Notes: generated by a model from the letters alone, not told the origin. 64,000 nucleotides of DNA from Patescibacteria group bacterium (GCA_041650915.1 JBAZKE010000006.1:8961-72960), one strand, 5' to 3'; positions 1,086 through 61,611 are shown, counted from the stretch's first letter. Program-made: numbers and translations.

Positions 1086-1358
1086 ATGACACCTAAATTT
1101 ATTCGCGTTGCTGGGAAATTATACCGCAAGGCCGAGGGCCTCGAAGATATCGAAGCCGCACTCAATGCCGTCGTGAAGGCCAAGAGCGTGCTCCAGGGCC
1201 TCGGAATTGATTTCTCCGACCTCGTGCAGGCAGAGAAAACTCTCAAAGCAGAAGCTCCGAAACCCAGCACGCAAAAGATTGATGCCGCGGTAAAGCCGGC
1301 GCCAGAATTAATTCGCGTCGCCGGCAAACTCTATCGCAAAGTACCAACCCCAGCCTAA
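1086..1358 (+). CDS. Small protein (90 aa) carrying the hairpin tag at both ends (N: KFIRVAGKLYRK; C: ELIRVAGKLYRK)
   Basis: AAGGAAAG RBS 6 nt before the ATG. Identical 10-aa peptide at both termini, encoded by diverged DNA. Confidence 0.65.
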   Translation: MTPKFIRVAGKLYRKAEGLEDIEAALNAVVKAKSVLQGLGIDFSDLVQAEKTLKAEAPKPSTQKIDAAVKPAPELIRVAGKLYRKVPTPA

Positions 1359-2123: not shown

Positions 2124-2396
2124 ATGCGTAACACGATTAAATATCTTGGTGTCGAATATGTGAGAGTCGCCGAAGCGCAAGACGCTTTGAGCACCGCACT
2201 GCAGCAGCTTAAAAATGCTAGAGAACAACTCAAGCACGCTACCGGTGATTATGGCAATAAGGCAACGTTGGCCAAAGCAATCGCTAGTGCTGATTCTTGG
2301 ATCGAGGCGGCGAGAAATAAAATTAAACAGCACGTCAAACAAATGCAAGAACCGCACATCGCCTCGGCAGAACTAGATAATATAGCCGACGAGTAA
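2124..2396 (+). CDS. Hypothetical small helical/coiled-coil protein
   Basis: 90-aa ORF, Q/K/A-rich heptad-like composition. Confidence 0.45.
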   Translation: MRNTIKYLGVEYVRVAEAQDALSTALQQLKNAREQLKHATGDYGNKATLAKAIASADSWIEAARNKIKQHVKQMQEPHIASAELDNIADE

Positions 2397-4445: not shown

Positions 4446-5561
4446 ATGTCTATTTATCGCAACAAGATCGTGAACCGGCAGGGCGAGGACGTTGCTCAGC
4501 AGCCCCGACTTGCTACTCGCAGTAACGGTACCGTGGAGCGCACCGCGGCTCCGCTCGTCAACGCCAAGGGCGAGTACAACGCCTTCGATCAGAAGGATCT
4601 CAAGAACATCCTCATGACCCTGGCGAACCAGGTCGAGTCCGGCGAGATGCAGCGCGTGACTGCCGTCGACGAGGATGCGGCTTCCCGCCTCGTGACTGCT
4701 GCTCTGACCGAGCGCAACGCTGACCTCCGCGGCGGTGCCTTCGAGCGCGTCGGCCAGGTCGTCACGGACATGATTTCTGAAACGATGGGCCGCCAGTCGT
4801 TCTCAGATAAGATCTTCGCCCGCATGGACGCCAAAGAGGGCGTGGGCTTTGTGCCGCCCGTGAAGGTCGATCAGATGGACGTTGTTGCTTGGCACTTGAC
4901 CGCCAACGGCCAGGTTGCCGAGTCTCTCGTCAATCCCAAGTTCATCTACCCCGAGGGTTATTGGCTCCAGACTCTAGTGTACGTTGAAGAGCAGGATCTG
5001 TATTTCGCAGGTTCCAGCTTCCTCGAGCAGAAGCACCAGCGTGGTCTCGAGGCCATGCTCGTCCGCCAGGACAACGTGGCCAAGTTCCTCCTCGACGCCG
5101 CTGCCCCCGTGGCCAACGACGTCGTGACGTTCGGTACCTTCACCCCGACCGTCGCGGGTATTCTCCGTGATCAGGTGTGGCGTTGGAGTCTGACCCCCAC
5201 CACGATGCTCCTCGCTGTCGACCTCCAGCGGGACATTCTGTCTGATGACGACTGGCACAACGTTTATTCGCCAATTCAGAAGCACGTCCTCTTTGAAGAG
5301 GGGAAATTCGGCGAGATCTACGGGATGGAAGTGTTCACCGACGGTTTCCGTTACCCGACCCTGCGCGTCCTAGACCCAGGCGAAGTGTACTTCCTGTCGG
5401 CCCCCACGACCCTCGGCGTGCACATTCCTCTCATTCCTCTGTACAGCGAGCCCGTAAATCGGCACTTCGAAGGCATCCCCAAGAAGGGCTGGTTCGTCGC
5501 TTCCTACCAGGCTACCGTCGTGGCCAACAGCAAGGGCGTGTCCAAGGGCATCAAGGTCTAA
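4446..5561 (+). CDS. Putative major capsid-like structural protein (371 aa)
   Basis: RBS AAAGGA. Size and position next to abundant structural paralogs. Product assignment is tentative, with no diagnostic motif. Confidence 0.55.
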   Translation: MSIYRNKIVNRQGEDVAQQPRLATRSNGTVERTAAPLVNAKGEYNAFDQKDLKNILMTLANQVESGEMQRVTAVDEDAASRLVTAALTERNADLRGGAFERVGQVVTDMISETMGRQSFSDKIFARMDAKEGVGFVPPVKVDQMDVVAWHLTANGQVAESLVNPKFIYPEGYWLQTLVYVEEQDLYFAGSSFLEQKHQRGLEAMLVRQDNVAKFLLDAAAPVANDVVTFGTFTPTVAGILRDQVWRWSLTPTTMLLAVDLQRDILSDDDWHNVYSPIQKHVLFEEGKFGEIYGMEVFTDGFRYPTLRVLDPGEVYFLSAPTTLGVHIPLIPLYSEPVNRHFEGIPKKGWFVASYQATVVANSKGVSKGIKV

Positions 5562-10670: not shown

Positions 10671-11429
10671 ATGCCCAAACCCGGCGCGGTTATTACAAGC
10701 ATTCCCGGCTATGACGTCGGTTCCGGCGCCATTGTGTTGTCGTGGCGCAATAGTATTGCAAAACTATGGCTTCAAGATAAACAAAAAGTCGTAAGACTCA
10801 AGATTCCCGAGTCTATCGTCCCGAAAATCGAAGACTTTTCGCTCAGGGCGGCGCCGTCCATAATCGATCAATCCGTTGAACAGCGACCAGATCAAATCAC
10901 AGGGCTACCGAGTTTCTGGGGACCCCGAGACCCCAACTACCCATCGAGCCTCACGGATGTGTCATATAGACCACAACAATGGTGGAACCGCATGGTGGGG
11001 AGATGGGCCAAATTATTGAATAATTCCGCTGAGTTGCAGCGCCGAATCGCTTCTCTGAAAGGTGCAGAAATGCTAAATCCACAGTCAAAACCGCAGCGTA
11101 TCATGCACCTGGAACTCTGGACACCGGAGATGGAAAAGGACGCTGAGCTGGATAAAGAGACTTTGGTCAAGCTCACCCAGGAATGTTGGGATGAGTACGA
11201 GCACCTCCGAACCCGAAGTCACCCCAGATTCGGCCGAGGCTGGAATACCCGGATTGCGGAATTCCTGGTATTTTTCATCGCCGAGAATGAGCTTACCCGA
11301 GAAGAGCGCTGCTGCTTCCTAGAATTCATGAAGACCATCGGGCTGATTCAGGAAAATGATTGCATTGAGGTCAAGACGCTGATGTCGCAGTACCTGCCCG
11401 AGGCTATGCGGATCGAAATTCAGAAGTAA
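10671..11429 (+). CDS. Hypothetical protein (252 aa)
   Basis: ORF sitting between two + strand genes. No recognisable motif. Confidence 0.5.
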   Translation: MPKPGAVITSIPGYDVGSGAIVLSWRNSIAKLWLQDKQKVVRLKIPESIVPKIEDFSLRAAPSIIDQSVEQRPDQITGLPSFWGPRDPNYPSSLTDVSYRPQQWWNRMVGRWAKLLNNSAELQRRIASLKGAEMLNPQSKPQRIMHLELWTPEMEKDAELDKETLVKLTQECWDEYEHLRTRSHPRFGRGWNTRIAEFLVFFIAENELTREERCCFLEFMKTIGLIQENDCIEVKTLMSQYLPEAMRIEIQK

Positions 11430-12847
11430 TGTTGTACCGCGGCCATCTATATCGTCTGGCTGGGTTAAGCGCCGCACCACGCAGCGCTGCGCCCAAGCTA
11501 GACCCCAAAGATAAGAAACTCACAGACGAGGATAAGAAACCTGTACTCGAAGCATGGCAGCCCCTGACGGACAAGCTCCTGGCACAGTATGAAATTAGAC
11601 CCAACGGGCCCATAGTGGTTACGCAGGAAGCCGATGGGTACGATTTAATCTATAGTATTGACCAGGTGTTCAATTCTCCAGCGTTCATTCGATTCGACGT
11701 CTCGACGGCCAAGAAAGCCATTCAAGAAATCCAGGTCCGGCTCATGTGCTCGCCGCCGCATTCATTCGTCGCGGCGCAACCGGCTCATGTCAAAGACCTC
11801 ATGATGGCATTGAAGACAATTTCAAAGTGCCAGAAGCGATCTGGTACATTCACGCCTCTCGACGAGAACGCCGCACAAAAGGAAGCCGAGGATTACGTCG
11901 AGAACACCATTATGTTCCTGGTGAACGCAGGCGTGGAAATAGATTTCACCAAGCAAGATGATGTCGTCGCGGCACTGGAAAAAGCCGACCTCGATGAAGG
12001 CGAAAAAGCCGCCGCGCAAGCCGCTGTTAAACAATGGGACCGCGACGAATATACAGCTTTTGTGAAGTTACTCCAGCAGCAAGCCGGGGAAATCATCAGT
12101 GTCCGGGAATCCATTTACAAGAAAGTCGCTGAGCTGACTCGGCACGAAGCCTTCGCCGTTAGCCCAGAAACCGTCAGAATCGAAGGCTACCATAACGGCG
12201 CCGCGGTCATTGGATTAGACGTACCTTGGCCCACCGTTCTGGAACTCACGGGACGCGGCGAAAACCTCAAACTCGTGAACTTCGCCACGACTATCTGCAG
12301 TGTGATTGTGAATTCCGGGCCCAATGAAAACTTAGCCAAAGCGCTTCTCACTGCGCAAGTGGATTTGATTCTCGCGGGCGACCGTGCGGCCAACCCGAGT
12401 CTCAGCAAGCCCACGACCGATAAGCTCAATTGGACCGACGAGCAAGTCCAGGAGTTCTTGAAGACGGGCGTTGGCTTGTTGGCACACAGGGTGGATTTGA
12501 AACAGCCACGCAACAACGACCTCACGAGCGTCGTCGTGGACAATAAAGTAATTGAATCGTATGAAAAGGGACCGGAGAATCAAATCGAAAGAAACGCAAA
12601 AGAATATCGTGCTAGCGTTCAGCGGCAGCTAAATAGTAGAAAGCCGGCCTACTGGTTTACATATTATGAAAACGATAATAAAGTAGAAGTTCACGCTACT
12701 GGAAACGGTAAAATCGTCAAAACTTTCCAAAATATTCCGCATCGATTCGACTATGATCTGGATAAACTCCCCATGGAGACAGCGCAACGACCAGATCAAG
12801 AGAAGCCGCAAAAGAAAAGAAGCGTGAGAACTCGCGCCAGACAGTAA
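11429..12847 (+). CDS. Hypothetical protein (472 aa) with N-terminal hairpin tag MLYRGHLYRL
   Basis: ATG overlaps the upstream stop. Tag variant at residues 2-10. Confidence 0.6.
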   Translation: MLYRGHLYRLAGLSAAPRSAAPKLDPKDKKLTDEDKKPVLEAWQPLTDKLLAQYEIRPNGPIVVTQEADGYDLIYSIDQVFNSPAFIRFDVSTAKKAIQEIQVRLMCSPPHSFVAAQPAHVKDLMMALKTISKCQKRSGTFTPLDENAAQKEAEDYVENTIMFLVNAGVEIDFTKQDDVVAALEKADLDEGEKAAAQAAVKQWDRDEYTAFVKLLQQQAGEIISVRESIYKKVAELTRHEAFAVSPETVRIEGYHNGAAVIGLDVPWPTVLELTGRGENLKLVNFATTICSVIVNSGPNENLAKALLTAQVDLILAGDRAANPSLSKPTTDKLNWTDEQVQEFLKTGVGLLAHRVDLKQPRNNDLTSVVVDNKVIESYEKGPENQIERNAKEYRASVQRQLNSRKPAYWFTYYENDNKVEVHATGNGKIVKTFQNIPHRFDYDLDKLPMETAQRPDQEKPQKKRSVRTRARQ

Positions 12848-22643: not shown

Positions 22644-23387
22644 ATGACCAGATATTTAGTCTACCGAAATGCTGTTTATCGCATCGCTTCCATGCCGTTG
22701 CAAGTTTTGCAGTTGGGCCCTGGCCAGAAATTCGATCCTGATTTCAAGACTTCCTGCACGCCTCCTTGGCAGGTTAACCCCTTCAATTACAAGCCGCTGT
22801 GCAGCAGCGGTAATCAACAACCGCTCTGGACCTCATCATACGACTACGAGGCAAAAAGTACTGAATGGCTAAGGTACTGCGCTCGCGGCTATGAAGACGA
22901 CATTGGGGAACAGGCCGTCATTTTTGAAGTGTCACCGTCTGCACGTGTGATGCATATTTTGAACGAAGACGACTTTGAAACAGCTTTAGGTCTATATCCT
23001 GGTGAGCCTTCCAACGACATGAAACGCATGGGAATGGGCCGACCTTTAGATTGGAACGCTGTCGCGCAGGAGTACGATGGATTTCATGTAGGGCGCGAAG
23101 CAATTTCTACTTCAGAACTTCGGGAGTGGAGCGTCGAATCGACCGTATGGTTTAACCCGAAAGTCTTGACGGTAAAGCAAATAGTTGACATCCAACATTA
23201 CTGTGACGCCGCTGGACACGGTCGTAGTTTGTCCCCACAAGAGCGTAAAGACATCAAGCAACAAAAAGAACAAACAGAAGAGTCTTTCGGGGAAAAACTT
23301 GACCAGTGGCTCGAGCACAGGACTGGGCCACAACCACAGCCGCCCCATGACCAGTACAGGTTCCGTTACGAAATACCCCGGCCATAG
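22644..23387 (+). CDS. Hypothetical protein (247 aa) with N-terminal hairpin tag MTRYLVYRNAVYRI
   Basis: Tag variant at residues 3-13. Confidence 0.55.
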   Translation: MTRYLVYRNAVYRIASMPLQVLQLGPGQKFDPDFKTSCTPPWQVNPFNYKPLCSSGNQQPLWTSSYDYEAKSTEWLRYCARGYEDDIGEQAVIFEVSPSARVMHILNEDDFETALGLYPGEPSNDMKRMGMGRPLDWNAVAQEYDGFHVGREAISTSELREWSVESTVWFNPKVLTVKQIVDIQHYCDAAGHGRSLSPQERKDIKQQKEQTEESFGEKLDQWLEHRTGPQPQPPHDQYRFRYEIPRP

Positions 23388-23402: not shown

Positions 23403-23457
23403 AATGCCGACAAAACTGCAATACCGTGGTCATGTTTACCGGCAAGCCAACCCCTGA
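23403..23457 (+). CDS. Tag-only mini-ORF (MPTKLQYRGHVYRQANP), possibly a frameshifted N-terminus of the 23426..24460 gene
   Basis: AAGGAAAA RBS 7 nt upstream. Encodes only the hairpin tag, then stops. Overlaps the next ORF in the -1 frame. Confidence 0.3.
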
Positions 23458-24460
23458 ATGGTGGGGACAGGACCAAGATCATCACTACACGCAGCCCGCA
23501 GATCCCGAGACTGAAATCCCGGTGGCAGATCTGCTGCGGGAATTCGACGAGATGATCGAGATCGCGTGCCGAGACGGCACCTGGAATGTTGATCCATATC
23601 TCTTCGGCATGGCCAATGGCATGATTTTCATGCGGTCAATAGTCAGCGGCGAAGAACCTCAGTATTTGGAGGCGCCGGCCGAGTGGTCGGGCGAGTCCAG
23701 TGGGGTAGAGGCAGAATCGGATAAGCGTTCACTTGCGCGGGGTGAAACTACACGTTACGTTACCCGTGACTATCTTCGCCAATATGTAGAGTCTACCGGT
23801 GTCGATTTGGACGACATAAAGCGTCATTATGGCCTCGGACAACATTCGGCCAGTGCCCAGTACCGACGGGGTTTTGTCGACGGGCAGGATTTCGGGCATG
23901 CTATTTTAGACGACGCGGCCCAACTTGAGCATGGTACCACAGCACTACAACGTGATGTCGACCGATTAGGCTGGGACGGGGCCGTTGAGCACCAGCAAGA
24001 TTTAGGCGACGCGGCCCAGCAACGTCTGGACCCCAATGCCATCAGCAAAACCATGTGGCAAATGGGCGTGCGGGATGCCAAACTGCTCGGCCCAGGGCTT
24101 ATAACAGTCGAAGAGGCGAAAGCTAGGGCGGCCAGAAGTGTCGCCAGCACTAAACAAGAAATATTGGCAACCCTGACCTCCAAGTTTAATTTCGGCGAAC
24201 CCAACGAATTTGACACACAAATCAGCACCGAAGCGGCCTACGCGCAGGAGCAGGACGCCATGGTGGCGTGGACAGCAGTCCGGCAGTACATCGATTCCGT
24301 GCTGCGGCAGCTCCTTCCCGTCACCACGACCGAAACAGATTTCGGCATGGCCCAAACCATCCTTGGTCTCATTGAGGTGGCGTCACATGTCGGTCGTGTG
24401 CGTTGCCGATGCTCAGATCCTTGGCGACTGCATGTCGGCATCACGACGCTCGCCAAATAG
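23426..24460 (+). CDS. Hypothetical protein (344 aa)
   Basis: Long ORF. Its own ATG lacks an RBS, whereas the out-of-frame 23403 ATG has a good one. Confidence 0.5.
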   Translation: MVMFTGKPTPEWWGQDQDHHYTQPADPETEIPVADLLREFDEMIEIACRDGTWNVDPYLFGMANGMIFMRSIVSGEEPQYLEAPAEWSGESSGVEAESDKRSLARGETTRYVTRDYLRQYVESTGVDLDDIKRHYGLGQHSASAQYRRGFVDGQDFGHAILDDAAQLEHGTTALQRDVDRLGWDGAVEHQQDLGDAAQQRLDPNAISKTMWQMGVRDAKLLGPGLITVEEAKARAARSVASTKQEILATLTSKFNFGEPNEFDTQISTEAAYAQEQDAMVAWTAVRQYIDSVLRQLLPVTTTETDFGMAQTILGLIEVASHVGRVRCRCSDPWRLHVGITTLAK

Positions 24461-27482: not shown

Positions 27483-28241
27483 ATGTTGCTTTCGGGCGTG
27501 TACAAGATTCAAAATACAGTTAATGGCAAACAGTACATAGGTAGTTCTGTGAATATACGAGAACGCTGGCAAGACCACGAAAGAAACCTGCGTGCCGGTA
27601 CGCACGCTAACGCCAGGCTGCAACACGCCTGGAATAAATATGGGGCAGACGCGTTTATATTTTCTATCATAGAGCTAGTCTCTCCAACCAAAGATGCTTT
27701 AATTGCACGCGAGCAAGCGTGGATAGATTTGCACAATACTGCTCATCGGGATGTTGGGTACAATATAAGTCCGACGGCAGGATCTTCTCTGGGCACCAAA
27801 TTTTCTGCGGAAACTTGTGCGCGCATGAGTAAAGCACAAAAGGGCAAAGTGCTCACGGAAGAGCACAAAAGAAAGATAGGCGCAGCGGCAAAAGGCAGAA
27901 AAGCGTCGGACGAAACTAAAATAAAGATTGGAAACGGTAGTCGAGGCAGAAAGCACACAGAGGAATGTAAAGCTAGAATCGGAGCTGCGTCCGCTGCTTG
28001 GACACGTGGGCCTGTATCGGACGAGACGCGCGCCAAACAAAGTGTAACGCGAAGAGCGAAACGATTGGGACATGGCGCCTCTAATGGCAGGGCAAAATTA
28101 ACAGAAGAACAAGTGATTGAGATCCGCAGACTTTACGCCACACGCGAATACACCAACGTTCAAATAGCGCAGCTTTTTGGCGTGTGCAAATCCACCATAG
28201 GCAGGATAGTACAGGGTAAACACTGGATTTTTGTAGCTTAA
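27483..28241 (+). CDS. GIY-YIG homing endonuclease with NUMOD3-type repeats
   Basis: GVYKIQNTVNGKQYIGSS...R...H. Repeated HKxKIG/ETKxKIG modules. AT-rich island. Confidence 0.85.
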   Translation: MLLSGVYKIQNTVNGKQYIGSSVNIRERWQDHERNLRAGTHANARLQHAWNKYGADAFIFSIIELVSPTKDALIAREQAWIDLHNTAHRDVGYNISPTAGSSLGTKFSAETCARMSKAQKGKVLTEEHKRKIGAAAKGRKASDETKIKIGNGSRGRKHTEECKARIGAASAAWTRGPVSDETRAKQSVTRRAKRLGHGASNGRAKLTEEQVIEIRRLYATREYTNVQIAQLFGVCKSTIGRIVQGKHWIFVA

Positions 28242-44150: not shown

Positions 44151-44183
44151 ATCACCTTAAAGTTTAGTAGTTTGGAGGTCTCG

Positions 44184-44555
44184 ATGGATACTTTTGTCTT
44201 TCGCGATGCTGTATATCGGCGTGTAATAGTTTCCCGTACGGCGGCTAGTGCCATGCAGGAGCTGCAGAGCGTTCCTCGAGATCTCACCGAGGAACAATTC
44301 GATGGCCTGTTGTGGCCGCTCGCAGAGAAGATGGTGCAGCAGTGTAGCACCAAAGATAAAGGGCCGACTACACGCGAGTGGTGCGTGTACTCTGGCGACA
44401 ACCAGCAGGGCCTACAAAGCATGCATCTTGACCGGCAAGACGCCGTAGATCATGCTTTTATGTGGTTGCAACGCTATTTCTTGACTGGCCTTCGTGGTAA
44501 CCCAAAAATCAAGAATTTCGATACTTTCCTGCAAGAATACGTGAAAAATCACTAG
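44184..44555 (+). CDS. Hypothetical protein with N-terminal hairpin tag MDTFVFRDAVYRRV
   Basis: ATG at 44184 inside the track ORF 44172..44555 (TTG start). Tag at residues 3-12. Confidence 0.5.
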   Translation: MDTFVFRDAVYRRVIVSRTAASAMQELQSVPRDLTEEQFDGLLWPLAEKMVQQCSTKDKGPTTREWCVYSGDNQQGLQSMHLDRQDAVDHAFMWLQRYFLTGLRGNPKIKNFDTFLQEYVKNH

Positions 44556-46182: not shown

Positions 46183-46737
46183 ATGTCCGTACCTAAATTT
46201 ATCCGCGTCGCCGGTCAATTATATCGTTTGGCTGAGCCACCGCCGCAGTTCACACAGGACAAAGACGAGCTTGGGAAGCTCGAGGCAGATCTCGAGATGG
46301 CAGAATCTATTGGCGCTACCGAAAACGCCAAGCAGATTAGGCAAAAAATTGAACAGCTAAAAACAGCTTTCGCACCCAGAGATAAATATTATGCTGACAT
46401 GCCCGGCGCGAAGTACGTAATTGCACTTTCTCCCGAAGAAGAAGAGATTCTATTCCAGATCCATGAGGGACAGGGCGACGCCGTCTATGCAGTCGCGAGC
46501 CGCAGTCATAGCGCTGGGTTAACTTGGGTCACTGAGGACGAACTCTCGACCGTAGTGTCTCGTCTTGCCTGGCTGCTCAGTGACGCGACCATCACAGCGG
46601 AGATGTCGGAACAAGAGCAAGAGACTGCCGCCTCGCTTCTCTATGAACTAGAAAACCTATCGTCCGGCAGCACTGGAATTGAGTATCCTCCTGGTGTCAT
46701 CCGGGAATTTGATTTGCAGACCCCACCCAGCGCTTAG
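46183..46737 (+). CDS. Hypothetical protein (184 aa) with N-terminal hairpin tag MSVPKFIRVAGQLYRL
   Basis: RBS AAAGGT. Tag at residues 5-15. Confidence 0.6.
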   Translation: MSVPKFIRVAGQLYRLAEPPPQFTQDKDELGKLEADLEMAESIGATENAKQIRQKIEQLKTAFAPRDKYYADMPGAKYVIALSPEEEEILFQIHEGQGDAVYAVASRSHSAGLTWVTEDELSTVVSRLAWLLSDATITAEMSEQEQETAASLLYELENLSSGSTGIEYPPGVIREFDLQTPPSA

Positions 46738-46800: not shown

Positions 46801-48519
46801 ATGCCTGAAATTATTTATCGCGGCCAGCGCTATGTACTCCACACGGCAGCCGAAACCTATGCCCCGCCTGCCCCGCCGGCCAATTGGGAAACAAATAAGC
46901 AAGAATATATCACCAAAGTCATAGCCGATTTGGAGGCTTTGGGCGAACGCGTTTATACTTTGGGTATTGAAAGCGACGTTATCGCGGAGCAACCCGGAGA
47001 TGTCGACGCAGAAGTAACGCAAACCAAAGTAAAACAAGTCCGGCACGAGCTTAAACTCCAAGAAGCCGCCGGTAATGCCGAAGCTGTGGCTGCTCTCAAG
47101 GCGCAACTCGACGCACTGGGAATTAAGAAATCTACCACGGGTTTGGCATTGGATAACTTGGCCAAGGTAATTGACAATACAATCGCGGCAGTTGAACTCG
47201 GAGAGTATCTAATCAAAAACCCCACGGTGCCTGCAAAACGTGCGGTAAAAATTCCTATTACTGAAGTCGTACCAGAGCTTACTCGTATCGTTGATCAGTG
47301 GGAAAAGTTTGCGCTATCGAGTCGGCCGGCGTCCGATGTGCCCGATCAGCAGCGCAAAAAAGAAGAAGTCCTGGGCTTCCCTAAATTCGTGAAGGTACAG
47401 CTTGACTTCATCAATAAACACATTGTAGAAGCTACTGAATTAGTCAACCGTGCTGCAGTGACCGAAGGCCAGGATCCCGAGGAAAGCGCACGTATCCAAG
47501 CTGCGCAAGCCGCACTTCCTAGTTTTATGTACCGGCTCAAGGTTGTGAATGAATCCATCGCCAAAGGCAAATATGTAATTTCCAACCGTGTCGACCTGCT
47601 GGCTGAGATGGAAGATGCGCGGAAAGCCGCAGAAACTGCTGGCGACGCAGCACAGGCTGAAGAACTGCAGAAGCGTATCGATTGGGTGCAAGGTACTCAA
47701 ACAACCGATAAGGACCTGAAAGATCGATACATTAAAGACATTGTGAAAGAGTTGTTTACAGAGTTTAAAGCGCACTGGCTGGTGGCCAAGGCGCAAAAGG
47801 CTAAAGAAAAAGCCGAAGCTGACGCGAAGGCTAAGGCAGATAAGCCCGAAAAAGAAAAGAAACCGAAGGAACCCAAACCCGACAATCTCATGGAGGTAGT
47901 AAAAGAACTCCTGGCTACGCTGGAGGATATCAAAAATAAACAGCCTATGTTCTTGCAAACCGCAAAAGCGCGCGAGGGTTTCGATAAACTCGTGCAGGAC
48001 ACCATCGCGGTTGGAAAGGCTGTAGACGCTGGCGCCGCTTCTGTGACGCTGTCGTCTGGGGAATACCCAATCAAAGAGGCCGTGAAGCTGGTGCAAGACG
48101 GTATGCGACAGTACCGCAGCATGATGAAGCGAGAGTTTGAGCCCGGGGCCAGAGCGCAAGAGAAGCAAGTCGGTATGGGCAAGAGTCTGGAAGATCTAGA
48201 TAAAAAGATTGCGGAGATTGATCAGGCCATTTCTGCGGTTCGCAGCCAGCAGAGTCGTGCGTCTGCAGGTAGCCTGGAGTTGCTAGAACAAATCAAGCGA
48301 AAACCGGATCGTGCAAGCAAACTGCCTTTGATGGCCCGGCGAGATAAAATAGAGCACGAAGTAGCAGAGCTTACTAAGCAAATCGACACCCTGCGCAAAG
48401 AGCGTAGTTCTGTGAGTCTAGCGCGTGACAATCTGCTTAAAAGCGTACGGCCAGGCCCACAGGCCACACCCGAAGTTACCAAACCAACGGGTCCCATTTA
48501 CCAGACACCGGAGTTCTAA
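46801..48519 (+). CDS. Coiled-coil K/E-rich protein (572 aa) with N-terminal hairpin tag MPEIIYRGQRYVL
   Basis: RBS GGAGAA. Long heptad-rich stretches and a KAKEKAEADAKAKADKPEKEKKPKEPKP segment. Confidence 0.65.
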   Translation: MPEIIYRGQRYVLHTAAETYAPPAPPANWETNKQEYITKVIADLEALGERVYTLGIESDVIAEQPGDVDAEVTQTKVKQVRHELKLQEAAGNAEAVAALKAQLDALGIKKSTTGLALDNLAKVIDNTIAAVELGEYLIKNPTVPAKRAVKIPITEVVPELTRIVDQWEKFALSSRPASDVPDQQRKKEEVLGFPKFVKVQLDFINKHIVEATELVNRAAVTEGQDPEESARIQAAQAALPSFMYRLKVVNESIAKGKYVISNRVDLLAEMEDARKAAETAGDAAQAEELQKRIDWVQGTQTTDKDLKDRYIKDIVKELFTEFKAHWLVAKAQKAKEKAEADAKAKADKPEKEKKPKEPKPDNLMEVVKELLATLEDIKNKQPMFLQTAKAREGFDKLVQDTIAVGKAVDAGAASVTLSSGEYPIKEAVKLVQDGMRQYRSMMKREFEPGARAQEKQVGMGKSLEDLDKKIAEIDQAISAVRSQQSRASAGSLELLEQIKRKPDRASKLPLMARRDKIEHEVAELTKQIDTLRKERSSVSLARDNLLKSVRPGPQATPEVTKPTGPIYQTPEF

Positions 48520-48522
48520 ACT

Positions 48523-49233
48523 ATGGCCAACGCAGTTAAATTCAACGGTGCGCTTTATGTAATTGCAGGCAAACCTGCGGCCGGAACTCCACGTAACACC
48601 ACTTGGACGAAAAAACAGTTCAAGCACTACACATCACCAGTTAAAATGCCGGGTGTGCGCACCGACGTCATCCAAGGAGACGAAGCTGCTGTACAAACAG
48701 AAATTAATCAGCTTAGGCGGGACATCGCAAAAGCTAAAGCTAGTTATGACAGCTTACTAGATCAGCGCAATCAGCAGTACGATAAACGAACTATTTCTCT
48801 CGAGGCGACGCGCTCGCCGGAGCGTAATCGGCTGATCCGGGAATCAGAGCAAAAGATACTCGAACTAGATGCAAAACTAGACCGAATGGAAAAAGGCATC
48901 GAGCGCCTGATTGAAACACTAAACGAAAAACTAAATGCTCAGGTTTCCGAGACACCAAGCCCAGCAGATCCAGGAGGTCTCGTGGTCGAATATGACCCCA
49001 TCAAGGTGCGCAAGCAGCAAGAGCTGCAGCGTGATTTGGCACAACTGCAGTCACACAAAGAAAAGCTATTAGCTGTGCAGCAAAAGTTCCTGCGGGATAA
49101 GTCTCAGCCGATGAGCGAAACTGCGGATAAACTCATCAAAAAAGATCTGCTCGACACCGACGACATGATCGCACAAAAGCAGCACATGCTCAGGGCTCTG
49201 TCGGCGCCTGCAGACCCAATGCTCAAGGATTAA
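48523..49233 (+). CDS. Coiled-coil protein (236 aa) with degenerate N-terminal tag MANAVKFNGALYVI
   Basis: RBS GGAG. Tag is weaker (no R after the Y). Confidence 0.55.
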   Translation: MANAVKFNGALYVIAGKPAAGTPRNTTWTKKQFKHYTSPVKMPGVRTDVIQGDEAAVQTEINQLRRDIAKAKASYDSLLDQRNQQYDKRTISLEATRSPERNRLIRESEQKILELDAKLDRMEKGIERLIETLNEKLNAQVSETPSPADPGGLVVEYDPIKVRKQQELQRDLAQLQSHKEKLLAVQQKFLRDKSQPMSETADKLIKKDLLDTDDMIAQKQHMLRALSAPADPMLKD

Positions 49234-49235
49234 TC

Positions 49236-49973
49236 ATGACGCCTAAATATATTCGTGTAGCTGGTAAACTATATCGTGCCTGCCCCTGTACTGAAGTTCC
49301 TGCTGCGGAGCATGCAGATGTAGTGCGCGAAGAACTCGAGATGCAGGGCTTTTCCGCGGTGCCATGCCAGGAACCCAAGAAAGTGTGTGTAGAGACTCCG
49401 CCAGCCCAGCCACAGATTTCGGCTCCACAACGCATTGAAACTACACAACGCTCAGCGCCGCAGTTCATTCGAGTACAAGGGCAAGTTTATAAAAAGGCGG
49501 CGGCAAATCTTCCTGCTGTTGCTGCTGGAACGCTCAAAGCGCTGAATCGCGTCAGAATGCAAATTACTGCAATTCTGGGCGAAGCCGATCGCGGGGACGA
49601 AGACCGCGCGTCGGACACCGTCTGTATTTCCAATGTTCCAGGTGAGTTTCAGGTGCTGTCGGCCGATGCGCTGGGTGAGCGCGCACGTGAGGCGCTGGAA
49701 CTACTGTACAATTCTATCGCGCTGTGGGAGCGCAGCGCTACCGTCGCGTTGGCGGAGAATGAGATCATGCAGCACGCGTACGTGCTGCTCAATGACGTGC
49801 ACGGCGCAGTGTCTGAGGCCGTTGAATCCGGCATTAATGCGCAGCCTGGATTTTTCTGTGTAGAGCGCGAAAAGTTCTTCGGTCTGGTATCGGATATCTC
49901 TGCGTGCATGCAAGCCTTCACGAAGCTAGAGCGGATGTTGACCCAGAAATACAGCGTAGCCTCCGTCTCTTAG
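49236..49973 (+). CDS. Hypothetical protein (245 aa) with two hairpin tags (N-terminal KYIRVAGKLYR; internal QFIRVQGQVYKK at 49461-49496)
   Basis: RBS AAGGAT. Two tag copies. Confidence 0.6.
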   Translation: MTPKYIRVAGKLYRACPCTEVPAAEHADVVREELEMQGFSAVPCQEPKKVCVETPPAQPQISAPQRIETTQRSAPQFIRVQGQVYKKAAANLPAVAAGTLKALNRVRMQITAILGEADRGDEDRASDTVCISNVPGEFQVLSADALGERAREALELLYNSIALWERSATVALAENEIMQHAYVLLNDVHGAVSEAVESGINAQPGFFCVEREKFFGLVSDISACMQAFTKLERMLTQKYSVASVS

Positions 49974-50008: not shown

Positions 50009-50593
50009 ATGTCACAGCGCCTCCAATTCCGTGGGCACAACTACCGCCTGTACACTCCGAAAAGCCAACGCCGTGAATTTCGCATGGCGGTTGCGGGTCT
50101 ATGGCGCGACGTCACGACAGTAATTCGGTATCTCGCAGAAAAAGGAATTGATCCAGTAGTTGTCGGCGGCCTCGCCGTGCAACACCACGGCGTAGAGCGT
50201 CTGACCGAAGATATCGATATCTTGATCTCCAGAGCTGCATACACGAAGCTCGTTGAGGAAGGCAAGATTAAGTTCGGGCAGCTGAAAATCATCCCCGGCA
50301 CGGAAATCGATGTGCTGACCGAGGGAAAGGACAACAACCCCGATCCTGAATTCATTCGAGCCGGAGATTCTAATTTCCCGACGTTTGCCGGTTTGATCTA
50401 CCTGAAGCTGAAAGCGAACCGACTTAAAGACCGAGGCGATGTCGCGGAGCTACTTAAAGCCCACGAGTTCAATATCGAGGAACAGCAGGAAATCCTAACG
50501 TTCCTGCCAGAAGAGCTAAAAATTAGATTTTTAGCCATTTGGGACGAAGCCGGGCAAGAGCACGACAAACGCAAGCAAATGGTGGAAGAATAA
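50009..50593 (+). CDS. Nucleotidyltransferase-fold (AbiEii-like) protein (194 aa) with N-terminal tag MSQRLQFRGHNYRLY
   Basis: Leaderless ATG. VVGGLAVQHHGVERLTEDIDILI matches the GG...G..R.T.DiD minimal NTase signature. Confidence 0.6.
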   Translation: MSQRLQFRGHNYRLYTPKSQRREFRMAVAGLWRDVTTVIRYLAEKGIDPVVVGGLAVQHHGVERLTEDIDILISRAAYTKLVEEGKIKFGQLKIIPGTEIDVLTEGKDNNPDPEFIRAGDSNFPTFAGLIYLKLKANRLKDRGDVAELLKAHEFNIEEQQEILTFLPEELKIRFLAIWDEAGQEHDKRKQMVEE

Positions 50594-51252
50594 TGCAACG
50601 TGTGTTTTCAACGCTGAACGATCTCATCGCGCAAGGCGTTATTACCGATTATGCTCTTGGTGGCTCCGTTGCGTTCATGTTTTACTGCCAGCCGTTCCTG
50701 ACCAACGACACCGATTTCTTTGTACAAATGCCGGGAAGCGGACTGCTAGTCTCGCTCTCGCCAATCTACGCTTACGCGGCAGAACATAATTTTCCTCTGG
50801 ACCATGAGCACATCGTTGTCGATGACGAGCCGGTGCAAATCATTCCAGCGCCCTCACCACTCTACGACGAAGCAATCGCTACAGCGCAGCAGCGGACAAT
50901 CGAAGGACAGAATGTAAAGGTCATGCTGCCGGAATATCTCGTCTGCACGGCACTGAATGCCGGCCGAATGAAAGATTTCGCAAAAATCGAAAAACTGCTC
51001 GAGGAAGCAGAAGTCGATCTGAGTAAACTAAAGGAACTCATTACCCGGTTTCAGCTATCTGCGCAGTGGAAGCGCTACCTTGTCGCCATTGGAGTTACTG
51101 ATCCAGCTTTTCTGCATTTGGCGGAAACAAAAGCAACCTGGCGCCGTGCACAAGCCGATAAACGGATGGAAGACAAACTACAAGAAATAAAAAAGCTGCG
51201 CACCAGAGTCAGCGCAATCCGCTATAGAAACGCACTGTACAGACCTGTTTAA
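50593..51252 (+). CDS. Second nucleotidyltransferase-fold-like protein (219 aa) with C-terminal tag IRYRNALYRPV
   Basis: ATG overlaps the upstream stop, with GGAAGA RBS. ALGGSVAFMFYCQPFLTNDTDFFV. The track's overlapping start at 50539 was rejected. Confidence 0.55.
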   Translation: MQRVFSTLNDLIAQGVITDYALGGSVAFMFYCQPFLTNDTDFFVQMPGSGLLVSLSPIYAYAAEHNFPLDHEHIVVDDEPVQIIPAPSPLYDEAIATAQQRTIEGQNVKVMLPEYLVCTALNAGRMKDFAKIEKLLEEAEVDLSKLKELITRFQLSAQWKRYLVAIGVTDPAFLHLAETKATWRRAQADKRMEDKLQEIKKLRTRVSAIRYRNALYRPV

Positions 51253-54325: not shown

Positions 54326-55225
54326 ATGACTACACCAAATAAAATCCGAGTTCGCGGTGACGTGTACGAACTCGTGAAAAACGTAGCGCCGCTGGCGCAA
54401 ATGGACCTCGCCGACGAGATGTCCCAAGATATGCGGTTGGCCCAAAATGAGTTCGTGACGACGGTAGAGAACGTCATCGATGCCGTGGATGAAATCGATC
54501 CGCGCGGCCTTGCATCTCCCATCGCCGGAATGGCCGCGCCAATCGGCAAGATATTCACCAAAGCGCAAGGAATCCTCAAACTATTTCAACACGACAAAAT
54601 CAGCGTGGAACTCTACAAATTGGAGTACGGTCGTTGGTACTTGGTACACGAGCTGGTGCGTGTGGCCTATCACTTTGCGCGCCAAGATTACTACAAGCGA
54701 GACAACAAACTAGATATTGACACCGTGGTCAGCGCACTTGACTACGACAAAACACTAAAAGAACTGCGGCAAGACCACGAGCGCTATTACGCGGCAGCCG
54801 CATCTAAAATACTGCTGCGCTTCATTAAGGCCGGCAGTGAGGATGACACCCCTGTCGTACAGGATTCGAAAACAAGGCGTGAGCTAGACCTCAGTGCCGT
54901 GACGATACAGCGAATTAAGGACACCATTAAGCACGTGCTGCAGGCTGCACTTGACCTCGGAACCGCCACGGCCGAAACCCTGGACAAATACGACAGCGCT
55001 GCTCGGCATCTCGCGGCAGCTACAAATCTGGCTAAAGAAATCGCCAAGGCGCCGCAGATGTTGATGAAACCTGAACCCCTGACTCCGCCAGAGCACAAAG
55101 AGCGCATCGATACAGACGCTACAATAAGTAAATCCGTTGAGGACGAGCCCACCGCCATTGATCCGCGCGTAAAGCACGGCACCTACCTTCACTACGCCGG
55201 AAAAACCTACCGTCCACTCACGTAG
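54326..55225 (+). CDS. Hypothetical protein (299 aa) with hairpin tag at both termini (N: NKIRVRGDVYEL; C: YLHYAGKTYRPLT)
   Basis: RBS CAGGAGA. Tag-like peptide at residues 6-16 and in the last 13 residues. Confidence 0.6.
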   Translation: MTTPNKIRVRGDVYELVKNVAPLAQMDLADEMSQDMRLAQNEFVTTVENVIDAVDEIDPRGLASPIAGMAAPIGKIFTKAQGILKLFQHDKISVELYKLEYGRWYLVHELVRVAYHFARQDYYKRDNKLDIDTVVSALDYDKTLKELRQDHERYYAAAASKILLRFIKAGSEDDTPVVQDSKTRRELDLSAVTIQRIKDTIKHVLQAALDLGTATAETLDKYDSAARHLAAATNLAKEIAKAPQMLMKPEPLTPPEHKERIDTDATISKSVEDEPTAIDPRVKHGTYLHYAGKTYRPLT

Positions 55226-58893: not shown

Positions 58894-59148
58894 CCAAAGT
58901 TCAATTTGAGTCAACCACCCCTCCTACATGGAGAGACGCGAAAAGGTCTCTGGTTGACTAGGGAACATCGAAAGGTGTAGCAGTTGGTCGAGAGAAATAC
59001 ATACACACCCGTGGACGCTCCTCAAATCTACGGCTCTGTGGATCTGTCGTTAAAAAGCTCAAGGGGTAGAGCTGGTGCGCAGATCTTAAAAACCTCTTCC
59101 AACAATCCCGATGAGGCTCTCACTTCCCTTTCGAGGGAAGGGCAGGAC
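58894..59148 (+). ncRNA. Candidate IscB-associated omega RNA scaffold and left-end structured region
   Basis: About 250-nt non-coding stretch immediately 5' of the IscB PLMP start. Dense nested hairpins (58909-58959 AGTCAACCA...TGGTTGACT with an inner GAGAC/GTCTC stem; GCTC...GAGC about 59080; CTTCCC-TTTCGA-GGGAAG 59120-59137). The reading frame is formally open through it. Confidence 0.3.
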
Positions 59149-60906
59149 TTGAGAGTACCTGCCGTTTATGTTCTTAATCAACGCGGCGAGCCATTAATGC
59201 CCACAACGCCAAGGAAAGCACGAATGCTTCTCCGGGAAGGAAAGGCCAAGGTAAAGACTAGAACTCCGTTTGTAATTCAATTGCTTGTTCCAACCGGAGA
59301 AACCAAACGGCCCATCGTTTTGGGAGTAGACGCTGGATACCTCCACGTTGGCCTGTCGGCCGTAACGGAAAATAAAGAAGTATACGCCGCGGAAATCACG
59401 CTTAGGTCTGATATTGTAGCCTTAATTTCGACTCGTAAAATGTATCGACAAACACGAAGAAGTAGAAAAACCTGGTACAGACAGCCGAGATGGTTGAATC
59501 GAGTAAAAAGCAAACCCAAAGGCTGGCTAGCTCCGTCAATTCAGCACAAGCTCAATAGCCATGTAAAACTGGTCGAGCGCGTTAAACGAATTCTTCCCAT
59601 TACCTCAGTAATAGTGGAAATAGCTGCTTTTGACATTCAGAAAATCAAAAATCCAGATATACAGGGAGTAGAGTACCAAGAAGGTGTGCAAAAAGGTTTT
59701 ACAAACGTGCGAGAATATGTGCTGTACAGAGATGGACATAAATGCCAAGCGTGCAAAGGAAAATCCAAAGACAAAATTTTGAAAGTAGTGTTGAACGCCC
59801 ACCACATAGAGTCTAGAAAAACAGGCGGAAATCGACCTGATAATCTCGTTACACTCTGTGCTGAGTGTCATAAGCTTTACCATAACGGTACCGTAAACAT
59901 TAAAACTAAACCCAGCAAAAGTTTCAAAGCCGAAGCATTCATGACGATGGTGTGGCGACGATTGGTTGAACTATTAGGTGCCGCAATCCGATATGGCTAC
60001 GAAACCAAACAAGCTAGAGCAGACGCTGGACTTAACAAAAGTCATGTTAATGACGCTTTTGTCGTCGCGGGCGGATGCTACCAGAACAGAACAGTTCCAT
60101 TTTTAGTAAAACAAGTTAGGAAACAGAACCGAAAACTTTACAATGGACCACACTCCGGTCGGCGCAGCACCGCTGCTCGATTTGTTCGTGGGTTCCAACG
60201 ATACGATAAAGTCCTGTACAAAGGAGTGGAATGTTTTGTGTTTGGAAGAAGAACCAACGGTTATTTCGACGTCCGAGATCTATACGGTGCTAGAATACAT
60301 GACGGCGCAAAAGCCAAGGACTGTGTTTTGCTGGAAACAGCAAGCACTTTATTAACCTGTACCCTAAGAGGTGGCACTCCCCTGCCTAAAGGCAGAGGTC
60401 TCCATGCCGAAGCCCAAATGAAAATCAGAACTGGTTTTGTCAGCAATTCGAGTAGTTCTAGCTTTGTCGTGCAAATCCGGCAGAGTCCGTGGGAAAAATC
60501 CGAGCCCAAATTGTTGCTTTCGCCGGAGCAACTCGCATGGCTAGAGTCTCAAGGATTTCGGTACTGTGCGCACACGTATCCCTCGCGAGTTGAGGAAACT
60601 GGGATTCTGGAAATGTACCCTGGCGCCGAAACGCCTGAAGCAGCAGAAAATATGTGGCTGTCGGTGATTTGTAACCAAGACGAAGTCATCGACGGTTTGG
60701 TCCGGCAGGGCATTCCATTTTGTGCGTCATGCCACTACGGACACGAGACTGTGGTTTGGCGCGCTGGCGATAAGCGCGTTTATGCATTGCCAAATTTAGG
60801 GCACGAATACGAAACATACCAAGAGGAGAAACTTTTCAAAGCTAAAGTCAAAGTAGCATCACAAACCGTAGCAAGCATCAAGAAAAACGGGTGTAATCTC
60901 GTTTAG
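59149..60906 (+). CDS. iscB: IscB-like RNA-guided nuclease (PLMP, RuvC-I, Arg-rich bridge, RuvC-II, HNH, RuvC-III, TID), fused in-frame to a C-terminal MKIRTGFVSNSSSSSF-family module
   Basis: VYVLNQRGEPLMPTTPRKARMLLREGKAKVKTRTPFVIQLL. LGVDAGYLHVGLS (catalytic D at about 59329). RRSRKTWYRQPRW. VIVEIAAFDIQ. HNH: CQAC...HHIESRK...N...LCAECHKLYH. SHVNDAFVVAGG. TID: FQRYDKVLYKGVECFVFGRRTNGYFDVRDLYG. TTG start at 59149 with GAGGGAAGGG RBS. The track ORF is open from 58984. Confidence 0.8.
   Translation: MRVPAVYVLNQRGEPLMPTTPRKARMLLREGKAKVKTRTPFVIQLLVPTGETKRPIVLGVDAGYLHVGLSAVTENKEVYAAEITLRSDIVALISTRKMYRQTRRSRKTWYRQPRWLNRVKSKPKGWLAPSIQHKLNSHVKLVERVKRILPITSVIVEIAAFDIQKIKNPDIQGVEYQEGVQKGFTNVREYVLYRDGHKCQACKGKSKDKILKVVLNAHHIESRKTGGNRPDNLVTLCAECHKLYHNGTVNIKTKPSKSFKAEAFMTMVWRRLVELLGAAIRYGYETKQARADAGLNKSHVNDAFVVAGGCYQNRTVPFLVKQVRKQNRKLYNGPHSGRRSTAARFVRGFQRYDKVLYKGVECFVFGRRTNGYFDVRDLYGARIHDGAKAKDCVLLETASTLLTCTLRGGTPLPKGRGLHAEAQMKIRTGFVSNSSSSSFVVQIRQSPWEKSEPKLLLSPEQLAWLESQGFRYCAHTYPSRVEETGILEMYPGAETPEAAENMWLSVICNQDEVIDGLVRQGIPFCASCHYGHETVVWRAGDKRVYALPNLGHEYETYQEEKLFKAKVKVASQTVASIKKNGCNLV
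60418..60906 (+). other. C-terminal extension of the IscB ORF, equal to paralog A of the MKIRTGFVSNSSSSSF family (163 aa), with internal ATG
   Basis: Begins MKIRTGFVSNSSSSSF, like the two genes downstream. In the IscB frame with no intervening stop. Could instead be a separate or coupled gene. Confidence 0.5.
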
Positions 60907-60914
60907 GAGGAAAC

Positions 60915-61283
60915 ATGAAGATCAGAACCGGGTTCGTAAGTAATTCCAGCAGCTCCAGCTTTTTGATCTGGGGCATCACAGTAGACACGTCGGAGTTTCA
61001 GAAAGAAATTCCCGTAAGAGATGAAGACGGGGAAGACTGCGAGGAAGAGAGCCCGTACGATGTCGCGGAGCGGCTTGAGTCCGAATACGGTGACATCGTG
61101 CGGTTTGCTTATGAAAACGACATCCTATATCTCGGTCGGTGCCCTTCAACTTGCGGCCTAGACGAGACCATGCGGAAGTTCCAGCAGCGCGTGGAAACCG
61201 AGGTGAAAGCCATGGCTGAGAAAGAAGGCGTAGCTCTGGGAGACGTGGAATTCGGGTGGCTCGAGGAAGCCTGGCACGACTGA
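60915..61283 (+). CDS. Small acidic protein, MKIRTGFVSNSSSSSF family paralog B (122 aa)
   Basis: Strong RBS TAGGAGGAAAC. The N-terminal 20 aa are conserved with A and C. Homologous to C over its full length (CxxxC.DETMxxFxxRVET...FGW...AW). Confidence 0.65.
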   Translation: MKIRTGFVSNSSSSSFLIWGITVDTSEFQKEIPVRDEDGEDCEEESPYDVAERLESEYGDIVRFAYENDILYLGRCPSTCGLDETMRKFQQRVETEVKAMAEKEGVALGDVEFGWLEEAWHD

Positions 61284-61293
61284 GGAGGACAAA

Positions 61294-61611
61294 ATGAAAA
61301 TCAGAACCGGTTTTGTAAGTAACTCGAGTAGTTCAAGCTTTTTGATTTGGGGCACCTTTGTCGAGGTAGACAAATTCGGCGAGGAATTCGATCGCGATGA
61401 AGTCGAAGGCGACATCGTGCACTCCGCCGGGCCCGACGACGACTATTACGTTTACGTCGGACGTGTGCCTAAAGAGTGTCGTGATGACGAAACCATGGGG
61501 CAATTCAAAGCCCGCGTCGAGACCGACGCCAGAGCGTTCCTGGCTGAGCAAAAAGTCGACGCGACAAATCTGAAATTTGGATGGCATTCGGCCGCGTGGT
61601 ACGACGGATAG
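61294..61611 (+). CDS. Small acidic protein, MKIRTGFVSNSSSSSF family paralog C (105 aa)
   Basis: Strong RBS TGAGGAGGACAAA. Paralog of B. Confidence 0.65.
   Translation: MKIRTGFVSNSSSSSFLIWGTFVEVDKFGEEFDRDEVEGDIVHSAGPDDDYYVYVGRVPKECRDDETMGQFKARVETDARAFLAEQKVDATNLKFGWHSAAWYDG

Follow-up and report, generated by a model that had tools for sequence, protein, structure and literature searches.

Two copies of a recurrent terminal peptide bracket a 90-residue protein of a phage head module: a possible docking tag for the procapsid

Results

The window analysed here is a stretch of 64,000 nucleotides (GCA_041650915.1 JBAZKE010000006.1:8961-72960) from a 78,120-bp contig that is deposited in the metagenome-assembled genome (MAG) of a Patescibacteria group bacterium. 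Our subject is an open reading frame (ORF) of this window, ORF1086, whose protein of 90 residues begins and ends with the same short peptide. This peptide, here called the tag, follows the pattern [ILFVM]-x-[YVF]-[RA]-G-x-x-Y-R and is found N- or C-terminally in about 13 window proteins and in two others encoded elsewhere on the contig. The tailed phage to which the window belongs is a distant relative of the jumbo phages, and ORF1086 is a genuine accessory gene of its head-morphogenesis module, specific to this lineage. We tentatively propose, as a possible if not yet probable explanation, that the product of ORF1086 is a bivalent form of a tag that targets procapsids or docks on scaffolds, encoded as a protein of its own.

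ORF1086 starts with ATG at 1086, comprises 90 codons and ends with TAA at 1356-1358 (MTPKFIRVAGKLYRKAEGLEDIEAALNAVVKAKSVLQGLGIDFSDLVQAEKTLKAEAPKPSTQKIDAAVKPAPELIRVAGKLYRKVPTPA). A Shine-Dalgarno sequence (AAGGA, 1074-1078) lies 7 nt upstream of the start codon, and the stop codon shares bases with the ATG of the next gene (TAATG), so that the two are coupled in translation within an operon. The protein begins MTPKFIRVAGKLYRK and finishes APELIRVAGKLYRKVPTPA, and the decapeptide IRVAGKLYRK occupies residues 6-15 and again residues 76-85, in agreement with a preliminary description of this DNA in which the bracketing by two copies was first noted. That description had also counted at least nine synonymous differences across the identical core. 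The two 36-nt strings concerned (1095-1130 and 1305-1340) do differ at nine positions, but this is an over-count for the core: its ten codons (30 nt in each copy) hold seven differences in six codons, all seven of them silent, and the other two are replacements (K/E and F/L) in the two codons that precede it. The conclusion drawn from the count, namely that selection acts on the peptide and that the copies do not stem from a recent duplication of DNA, nevertheless holds. The synonymous sites of the cores are saturated (pS about 0.8 after Nei and Gojobori; averaging over codon paths makes that method enter one silent difference of the seven as a replacement), there are no core replacements, the probability that seven random substitutions in the core would all be silent is 1.5e-5, and orthologues of other tagged proteins keep a drifting motif. 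A repeat acting at the level of DNA or RNA was considered and rejected, as the copies are direct repeats whose DNA has diverged to saturation.

Alignment of 41 instances of the tag yields the consensus P(-7), [ILFVM](-4), [RK](-3), [YVF](-2), [RA](-1), G(0), [HKQA](+1), h(+2), Y(+3), R(+4), [AV](+6), in which the glycine and the tyrosine are at least 90% conserved. The ten-residue core is basic, with a mean net charge of +2.1 and a positive charge in 40 of the 41 instances. An independent profile hidden Markov model, built from 22 instances that all come from other phages, was scanned against this contig. Its ten best sites, at 11-20 bits, all fall into real frames of the + strand, nine of them at protein ends and the tenth being the internal second copy in ORF 49236, whereas the best match in a non-coding decoy frame scores 6.5 bits. 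Since the two copies in ORF1086 score 18.1 and 15.8 bits against this decoy value, the motif is not a chance pattern. Six-frame scans place the tag at the extreme N-terminus of ORFs 2124, 11429, 22644, 23404, 44172, 46183, 46801, 48523, 49236, 50009 and 54326, at the C-terminus of ORFs 50539 and 54326, and internally in ORF 49236 (Table 1). Upstream of the window, the 129-residue protein encoded after the portal gene bears an N-terminal tag, and the 247-residue protein encoded directly after the protease gene (8202..8945 of L006, the 9-kb part of the contig ahead of the window) carries two tags near its C-terminus.

The gene content of the window is that of a tailed phage, and the contig is a phage contig binned into a bacterial MAG. 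L006 encodes the large terminase (E 8e-94), the portal protein (1e-74) and the head maturation protease (9e-47), and the genes are arranged in the order TerL, portal, protease, the 247-residue protein with two tags, further on ORF1086, and then the major capsid protein. ORF1086 lies about 2 kb past the protease gene and 3 kb ahead of the capsid gene, a position in the head module in which a scaffolding protein would be looked for. Farther along, the window encodes HNH endonucleases, an ATP-dependent ligase and proteins with Laminin_G_3 domains, which we take to be tail-fibre-like. With its counterparts in the jumbo phages Aura, PaBG, Lu11, phiRSL1 and Yoloswag the capsid protein shares 27-31% identity and with its closer, metagenomic relatives 34-96%, and an acidic N-terminal stretch, ..RGEDVA(E/Q)GP.., is present in most of 28 homologues. 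A megablast search of the first 12 kb against isolated phages gave no match, and viral contigs scanned with the single capsid sequence yielded no hit.

The tag is present in relatives whose capsid protein is only 45-56% identical to that of the window. The closest relative, L001 (capsid 91% identical), has a protein with four tags and an HNH gene between it and the protease gene. In L003, L005, L008 and L009 (51-56%) the motif ...FTYRGHRYR... is found at C-termini and MQFRGHLYRPV at an N-terminus, and L010 (45%) has 13 tags within 21 kb centred on its capsid gene. The protein encoded after the protease is tagged in three genomes, with two C-terminal copies on this contig, four copies in L001 and an N-terminal tag in L010. 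Members of the DUF5661 family carry the tag behind one and the same middle domain, C-terminally in L003 and L008 and internally in L005, L009 and L010; a family of 207-224 residues in L003, L005 and L008 always has it at the end. L011 is colinear with the window from 46.8 to 50.6 kb, and its orthologues of ORFs 48523 and 50009 keep diverged tags, while P0032 corresponds to the C-terminal domain of ORF 49236 devoid of any tag. As orthologous families keep the tag amid change and the body of P0032 is tag-free, these comparisons show the tag to be an autonomous unit that can be gained or lost and is under purifying selection. Head modules of tag-bearing phages (the window, L001, L010) and of tag-less ones (L007, L018) were also compared, and apart from the tagged genes themselves no gene specific to the tag-bearing set was found.

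In a tblastn search of isolated phages a segment with three tags gave only a chance match to a fibritin gene (E = 8), viral contigs had no match to degenerate DNA patterns for FIRVAGKLY, and among metagenome contigs the first such pattern gave nothing and the second five matches that we judge to be chance, four of them with nearby stop codons and the fifth in an open stretch without tag context. A profile of the triple tag, run against the protein universe, retrieved one protein only (P0030, E up to 10); against so large a library the length of a single tag does not suffice for a significant score. The tag has no significant match in Pfam, PHROGs, NCBIfam, PADLOC or the PDB sequences, and ORF1086 has no family match in Pfam, PHROGs, NCBIfam or PADLOC, nor to any known scaffold family. 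Full-text literature searches, by which the motif itself cannot be queried, gave nothing comparable. Several known small folds (the AP2-like YRG strand, DUF1653, cell-wall-binding repeats, ribbon-helix-helix and AbrB-type hairpins) were considered for the tag and rejected, because they are longer domains or tandem arrays and there is no Pfam match.

In a search of 5.8 billion protein clusters ORF1086 matched only its own entry, which is annotated as hypothetical, an exact look-up of the gene returned nothing, and tblastn against L001 gave only tag-to-tag matches in the four-tag protein. By alignment its closest relative appears to be ORF 49236 of the same window: ORF1086 aligns end to end with residues 1-87 of that protein (40% identity, pairwise E 1e-13), the match is recovered in an exhaustive search of 1.8 billion proteins (E 4e-4), and the spacing of the tags is 70 residues in ORF1086 and 72 in ORF 49236. 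The public gene call of ORF 49236 starts at residue 30 (P0031, 216 residues) and hides the N-terminal tag, and automated choices of start codons may conceal many N-terminal tags in protein databases. In L011 the syntenic position of ORF 49236 is occupied by P0036, a free-standing protein of 128 residues built as tag, spacer, tag (SPKFIRVAGKLYRR ... VPDFVAYHGQVYQRAVK, the latter ending the chain), and P0030 (83 residues) has two tandem N-terminal tags followed by a helix. Since the two-tag arrangement recurs in ORF 49236, P0036, P0030 and ORF 54326, the module is recurrent and mobile, with ORF1086 as one of its copies, lineage-specific and free-standing.

The tag is predicted to be a basic beta-hairpin of about 10-14 residues, consisting of a strand, a two-residue turn (A/R/N)-(G/N) and a second strand. 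The pairs found at the turn (AG, RG, NG, RN, RD) are classic tight-turn pairs, and the positions that close the turn, -2 and +1, covary, V going with K/Q and Y/F with H (Fisher p 2e-4, ignoring relatedness). AlphaFold modelling of ORF1086 as a single sequence was uninformative (predicted local distance difference test, pLDDT, 60.6; all-helical with low-confidence tags). With an alignment in which the tag instances of the window formed rows over the C-terminal tag only, strands were predicted at residues 75-78 and 81-84 around an A79-G80 turn (pLDDT about 85), whereas the identical N-terminal core, which had no alignment rows, was modelled as helical (pLDDT about 54). The central helices (residues 22-38 and 43-53) have a pLDDT of about 71, and the predicted template modelling score is only 0.27-0.32. 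Neither model brings the two tags together, and pairing of the terminal strands with each other or with other tags, suggested as possible in the preliminary description, finds no support. A profile of the 41 tags retrieved from all PDB sequences only two chance-level matches to IsdC NEAT domains (E about 1), which we take to be of strand-turn-strand form.

Table 1. ORF1086, its parts and other relevant genes of the window (coordinates in the window; gene ends include the stop codon for ORF1086; bit scores from the independent profile)
Feature	Coordinates	Strand	Remarks
ORF1086	1086..1358	+	Tag, helical spacer, Pro/Ala/Lys-rich linker, tag
ORF1086 N-terminal tag PKFIRVAGKLYRKA	1092..1133	+	Core IRVAGKLYRK 1101-1130; 18.1 bits (profile from other phages only)
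ORF1086 spacer	1134..1298	+	Predicted helices at about residues 22-38 and 43-53 (AlphaFold pLDDT about 71), then unstructured Pro/Ala/Lys-rich linker; not conserved in L001
ORF1086 C-terminal tag APELIRVAGKLYRKV	1299..1343	+	Core 1311-1340; 15.8 bits; predicted beta-hairpin
90-aa head-module protein	2124..2396	+	N-terminal tag IKYLGVEYVR 2136-2165, 6.4 bits; helical body, look of a scaffolding protein
Major capsid protein	4446..5561	+	phrog_2522, E 5e-36; candidate partner of the tag
472-aa protein	11429..12847	+	N-terminus is tag MLYRGHLYRL 11429-11458; 11.4 bits
247-aa protein	22644..23387	+	N-terminal tag LVYRNAVYRI 22656-22685
Frame-split gene	23404..24460	+	Starts with tag LQYRGHVYRQ 23416-23445, 18.3 bits; shift at CCC TGA 23452-23457
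127-aa protein	44172..44555	+	N-terminal tag FVFRDAVYRR 44193-44222
184-aa protein	46183..46737	+	N-terminal tag IRVAGQLYRL 46201-46230; 19.8 bits
572-aa coiled-coil-type protein	46801..48519	+	N-terminal tag IIYRGQRYVL 46810-46839; 14.1 bits
236-aa protein	48523..49233	+	N-terminal tag VKFNGALYVI 48535-48564; L011 orthologue INFRGAVYVV
245-aa protein	49236..49973	+	Residues 1-87 are tag, about 70 aa, tag (49251-49280, 49467-49496), fused to C-terminal domain
DUF2204-like nucleotidyltransferase	50009..50593	+	N-terminal tag LQFRGHNYRL 50021-50050; L011 orthologue IRYQNCLYKP
Second DUF2204-like nucleotidyltransferase	50539..51252	+	C-terminal tag IRYRNALYRPV (then stop) 51217-51246
299-aa helical protein	54326..55225	+	N-terminal IRVRGDVYEL 54344-54373 (14.9 bits); C-terminal LHYAGKTYRP 55187-55216 (6.0 bits)

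Discussion

The position and composition of the tagged proteins lead us to suggest that the tag is a modular docking peptide, borne at either end of many unrelated proteins and in two to four copies by the protein encoded after the prohead protease, and that it would dock on a common site in the assembling procapsid, be it the capsid protein, the scaffold core or the portal. Tagged proteins, including the two nucleotidyltransferases, would thereby be packaged, and ORF1086, which offers little besides its tags, might bridge two docking sites as a small bivalent scaffold, cross-linker or filler. We favour docking because tags cluster around the protease and capsid genes, because in three genomes several tags are borne by the protein at the canonical scaffold position, and because small proteins made up of a tag and a helix abound near these same genes. 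The tagged set moreover includes enzymes of the sort that phages inject, namely the two DUF2204-like nucleotidyltransferases, and tags end their chains on flexible linkers rich in Pro, Ala and Glu. The conserved acidic ..RGEDVA(E/Q)GP.. stretch of the capsid protein could, by pure inference, be the site that receives the basic tag.

But what would be the role of ORF1086 in this, given that so close a relative as L001 manages without it? In L001 the homologues of ORFs 356 and 1358 are joined directly (TAA then ATG) with no gene between them, and ORF1086 therefore cannot be an essential scaffold; it is missing from L018, L007 and L010 as well and so lacks the conservation among close relatives that a scaffolding protein would show. 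The scaffold-position protein of L001, on the other hand, has four tags rather than two, and this suggests that ORF1086 is an accessory that would add valency rather than a core component. The idea of the preliminary description that the protein is a minimal adaptor or scaffold of the tag system is therefore plausible but unproven. The recurrence of the layout in ORF 49236, P0036, ORF 54326 and the multi-tag proteins by the protease speaks for it, and a conserved core adaptor is ruled against by the absence of the gene from L001, the lack of an orthologue and the marginal likeness of the spacer to that of its paralogue. Loss of a terminal copy from homologues with a conserved body had been named there as an argument to the contrary. 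P0036 keeps both copies, and the argument does not strictly apply, since the body of the protein is not its conserved part.

These absences of ORF1086 are not the only observations that weigh against an essential role of the protein or against docking to the procapsid. The spacers of ORF1086 and ORF 49236, compared alone, show a marginal likeness (global z = 3.0, local score not significant). L018 (capsid 65% identical) and L007 (59%) show no tags in the sampled surroundings of their capsid genes (7 kb and 20 kb, respectively), so that the tag is apparently dispensable for building capsids of this type, and its distribution is patchy relative to the tree of capsid proteins. On the contig itself 11 of the about 15 tagged proteins are encoded outside the head module, many of them at 44-55 kb among genes of nucleotide-metabolism and lysis type, near the ligase, nucleotidyltransferase and HNH genes. 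Several tags are no better than decoys by the independent profile (ORFs 2124 and 50009, the C-terminus of ORF 54326, and the 247-residue protein), and that of ORF 48523 falls below its 5-bit listing threshold; these calls rest on terminal position and, for ORFs 48523 and 50009, also on the orthologues in L011 that keep the motif. Finally, as the N-terminal core is modelled as helical when it has no rows, the assignment of a hairpin depends on the alignment supplied, and both packaging and the binding partner are putative.

A comparison with known systems is instructive. The capsid targeting sequence (CTS) of phage T4 is a terminal peptide of about ten residues, the only feature common to the diverse internal proteins IPI-III and Alt, and loads these into the scaffolding core of the prohead (PMC3012670). 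It can be transferred to other proteins (PMC3012670). Its cargo includes injected enzymes and anti-defence proteins. The tag resembles it in being a short peptide common to unrelated proteins of one phage, here including two nucleotidyltransferases. The CTS, however, is known from N-termini only and is cut off by the prohead protease, whereas the tag is N-terminal, C-terminal or internal, occurs in two to four copies and is a predicted hairpin; nor did inspection reveal any sequence resemblance to the CTS. Scaffolding proteins provide a second precedent. Coat-binding C-termini are known from the 80alpha scaffold, from CpmB of SaPI1 and from the herpesvirus scaffold. In phage P22 the basic C-terminus of gp8, a flexible helical protein, is a helix-turn-helix that contains Tyr and binds acidic residues in the N-arm of the coat protein (PMC9965877). 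The present phage likewise has a short basic terminal element with Tyr, a post-protease protein that ends in tags and a capsid protein with a widely conserved acidic N-terminal stretch. Different from the tag, the gp8 element is a helix-turn-helix of about 30 residues that occurs once per scaffold protein, while the tag is common to at least 13 proteins that are not scaffolds, and ORF1086 is neither conserved nor a match to a scaffold family.

The cargo-loading peptides of encapsulins are short, are flexibly linked to either terminus of the cargo enzymes and dock inside a shell of HK97 fold. The linkers rich in Pro, Ala and Glu that precede terminal tags recall this arrangement. Yet the tag has no GSL-type motif, the shell gene is that of a true phage with terminase, portal and protease, and proteins made only of several tags are not a known feature of encapsulins. 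T4 fibritin ends in the foldon, a C-terminal domain that forms a beta-hairpin with aromatic residues and a two-residue turn ending in Gly and serves as an autonomous, transferable association module. Unlike the tag, the foldon has 27 residues, among them an additional N-terminal segment, is present in a single copy per chain and self-trimerises; the tag is strongly basic, and the profile search of the PDB sequences revealed no sequence relationship to fibritin. The tag works most like a capsid-targeting or scaffold-docking peptide, yet it does not group with the T4 CTS, the encapsulin peptides or the foldon.

The likeness to the foldon (..AYVRKDGEWVLL..) extends to the whole layout, a hairpin of about 12 residues at the chain end, with a turn of two residues and an aromatic side chain, and raises the question whether tags bind each other, within or between molecules, with ORF1086 cross-linking a network of tags. 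Multi-tag proteins able to build such networks exist, and self-association could well coexist with a role in scaffolding. We nonetheless consider it unlikely, since neither AlphaFold model pairs the tags of ORF1086, a core net charge of about +2, positive in nearly every instance, disfavours contact between tags without a counter-charge, it would seem costly for enzymes, fibrous proteins and small proteins to co-oligomerise indiscriminately, and fibritin was not among the proteins retrieved by the PDB search. The same positive charge, together with the conserved R, K, H and Y, would suit a hairpin that binds nucleic acid, such that tagged proteins ride on the phage DNA and two-tag proteins bridge or condense it. 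But an isolated hairpin of ten residues is a weak DNA binder, the strict G and Y and the single hydrophobic face fit a protein pocket better, and the profile searches with ORF1086 and the tag matched no known DNA-binding family, which makes this explanation very unlikely.

A docking tag need not, of course, dock on the capsid. Its partner might be a host factor or a component of phage replication, transcription or a phage compartment, and ORF1086 a bivalent regulator or competitor at such a hub. The tagged proteins outside the head module and the patchiness of the tag relative to the capsid tree point in this direction; the enrichment of tags near the genes for protease and capsid in several genomes and the multi-tag proteins in the scaffold position point away from it, no hub-binding motif is known to resemble the tag, and we regard such a partner as quite unlikely. 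The proximity of the prohead protease gene to ORF1086, the terminal location of the tag and the A/V then E/D that often follow it could also be read as marks of a recognition or degradation signal, for instance for an exosite of the prohead protease, with ORF1086 as decoy substrate. This we hold to be highly improbable, as internal and tandem copies and C-terminal copies ending 2-6 residues past the Y-R fit no single cleavage geometry and no consistent cleavage motif was found. Almost no credence, lastly, is due to the view that ORF1086 is non-functional, either spurious or a decaying fragment from the 5' end of a gene like ORF 49236. It would account for the absence from the closest relative, the lack of an orthologue and the poorly conserved spacer, but not for the good Shine-Dalgarno sequence, the ATG start and the coupling to the next gene, for two tags intact despite saturated silent divergence, or for a free-standing homologue with both tags in another phage.

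If the tag is indeed a signal for procapsid loading or scaffold docking, it offers a first clue to the function of over a dozen 'hypothetical' proteins in each genome of a clade known only from metagenomes, which would be marked as injected or as internal to the head. It would also be a compact tag of about 12 residues for loading cargo into capsids, usable at either end of a protein, and it would mean that one short motif, used repeatedly, can serve both scaffolding and cargo loading, the simplest bivalent case being ORF1086. Even with a partner other than the capsid, a central hub is suggested by a terminal motif that is borne by about 15% of the proteins of a phage and has been kept over deep divergence. 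A more far-reaching picture, which we consider doubtful as a whole, is that in an uncultivated, jumbo-related phage clade one basic beta-hairpin tag, at either terminus or in tandem, recruits at least 15 proteins per genome, enzymes included, into the procapsid, and that proteins consisting of tags only (ORF1086, P0036, P0030 and the multi-tag post-protease protein) serve as multivalent glue, which would make the system a phage counterpart of the encapsulin cargo-loading peptides equipped with a bivalent adaptor.

Additional observations

Some of the tagged genes merit separate mention. The protein of ORF 54326 is a second case of the tag-bracketed layout described for ORF1086, and the adjacent genes for DUF2204-like nucleotidyltransferases are tagged at opposite ends (N-terminally in 50009..50593, C-terminally in 50539..51252). 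ORF 2124 has weak matches to DUF6674 and Phage_scaffold, and the body of ORF 46183, judged by eye, is similar to the C-terminal portion of L010's tagged DUF5661 protein. The window has its own DUF5661 protein (1249 residues, 5635-9384), encoded after the capsid gene, with a degenerate tag-like site, KIKRGKKVYKA, at 6151-6180 that has an extra residue after the Gly; the canonical tag is found at this position in the orthologues of L003, L005, L008, L009 and L010. The N-terminus of the capsid protein (MSIYRNKIV) was likewise considered as a tag and rejected, its likeness not being conserved among homologues.

At 23404 an ORF of 17 residues that is just a tag (MPTKLQYRGHVYRQANP, then stop) overlaps in another frame the start of a 344-residue ORF at 23426. 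The homologue P0037 is continuous across the split (..LANPSWW..), which indicates that the two ORFs are one gene with a +1 shift at AAC CCC TGA A; the split is either an assembly indel or a +1 frameshift site of the CCC_UGA type.

The tag is not the only repeated element in these phages. In L018, one of the two relatives around whose capsid gene no tag was seen, a repeat of about 45 residues (RRRAVS.KL.DSIDCEDILGG.V..D.GFC..L..KP) occurs three times across two adjacent head-module proteins (186-2121) and may be a different module for an analogous purpose. A second repeated module of the window, MKIRTGFVSNSSSSSF..., is found three times at 60418-61611, namely inside a 640-residue RRXRR/HNH-like ORF (58984..60906, from 60418) and at the beginning of the proteins from ORFs 60915..61283 and 61294..61611. 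Immediately ahead of the capsid gene, 2581-3384 and 3611-4405 encode tandem paralogues of about 265 residues ('virion structural protein', phrog_16710); at this place, right before the capsid gene, the relatives have one gene of comparable size (265-272 residues).

All these genomes are interspersed with homing-type HNH genes, ORF 27483..28241 has the look of a GIY-YIG endonuclease, as far as the sequence by itself can tell, and in three relatives a gene for IS605 OrfB/TnpB (Cas12f-like) lies immediately downstream of the capsid gene (L003 11257-11961, L005 11312-12559, L008 11294-12538).

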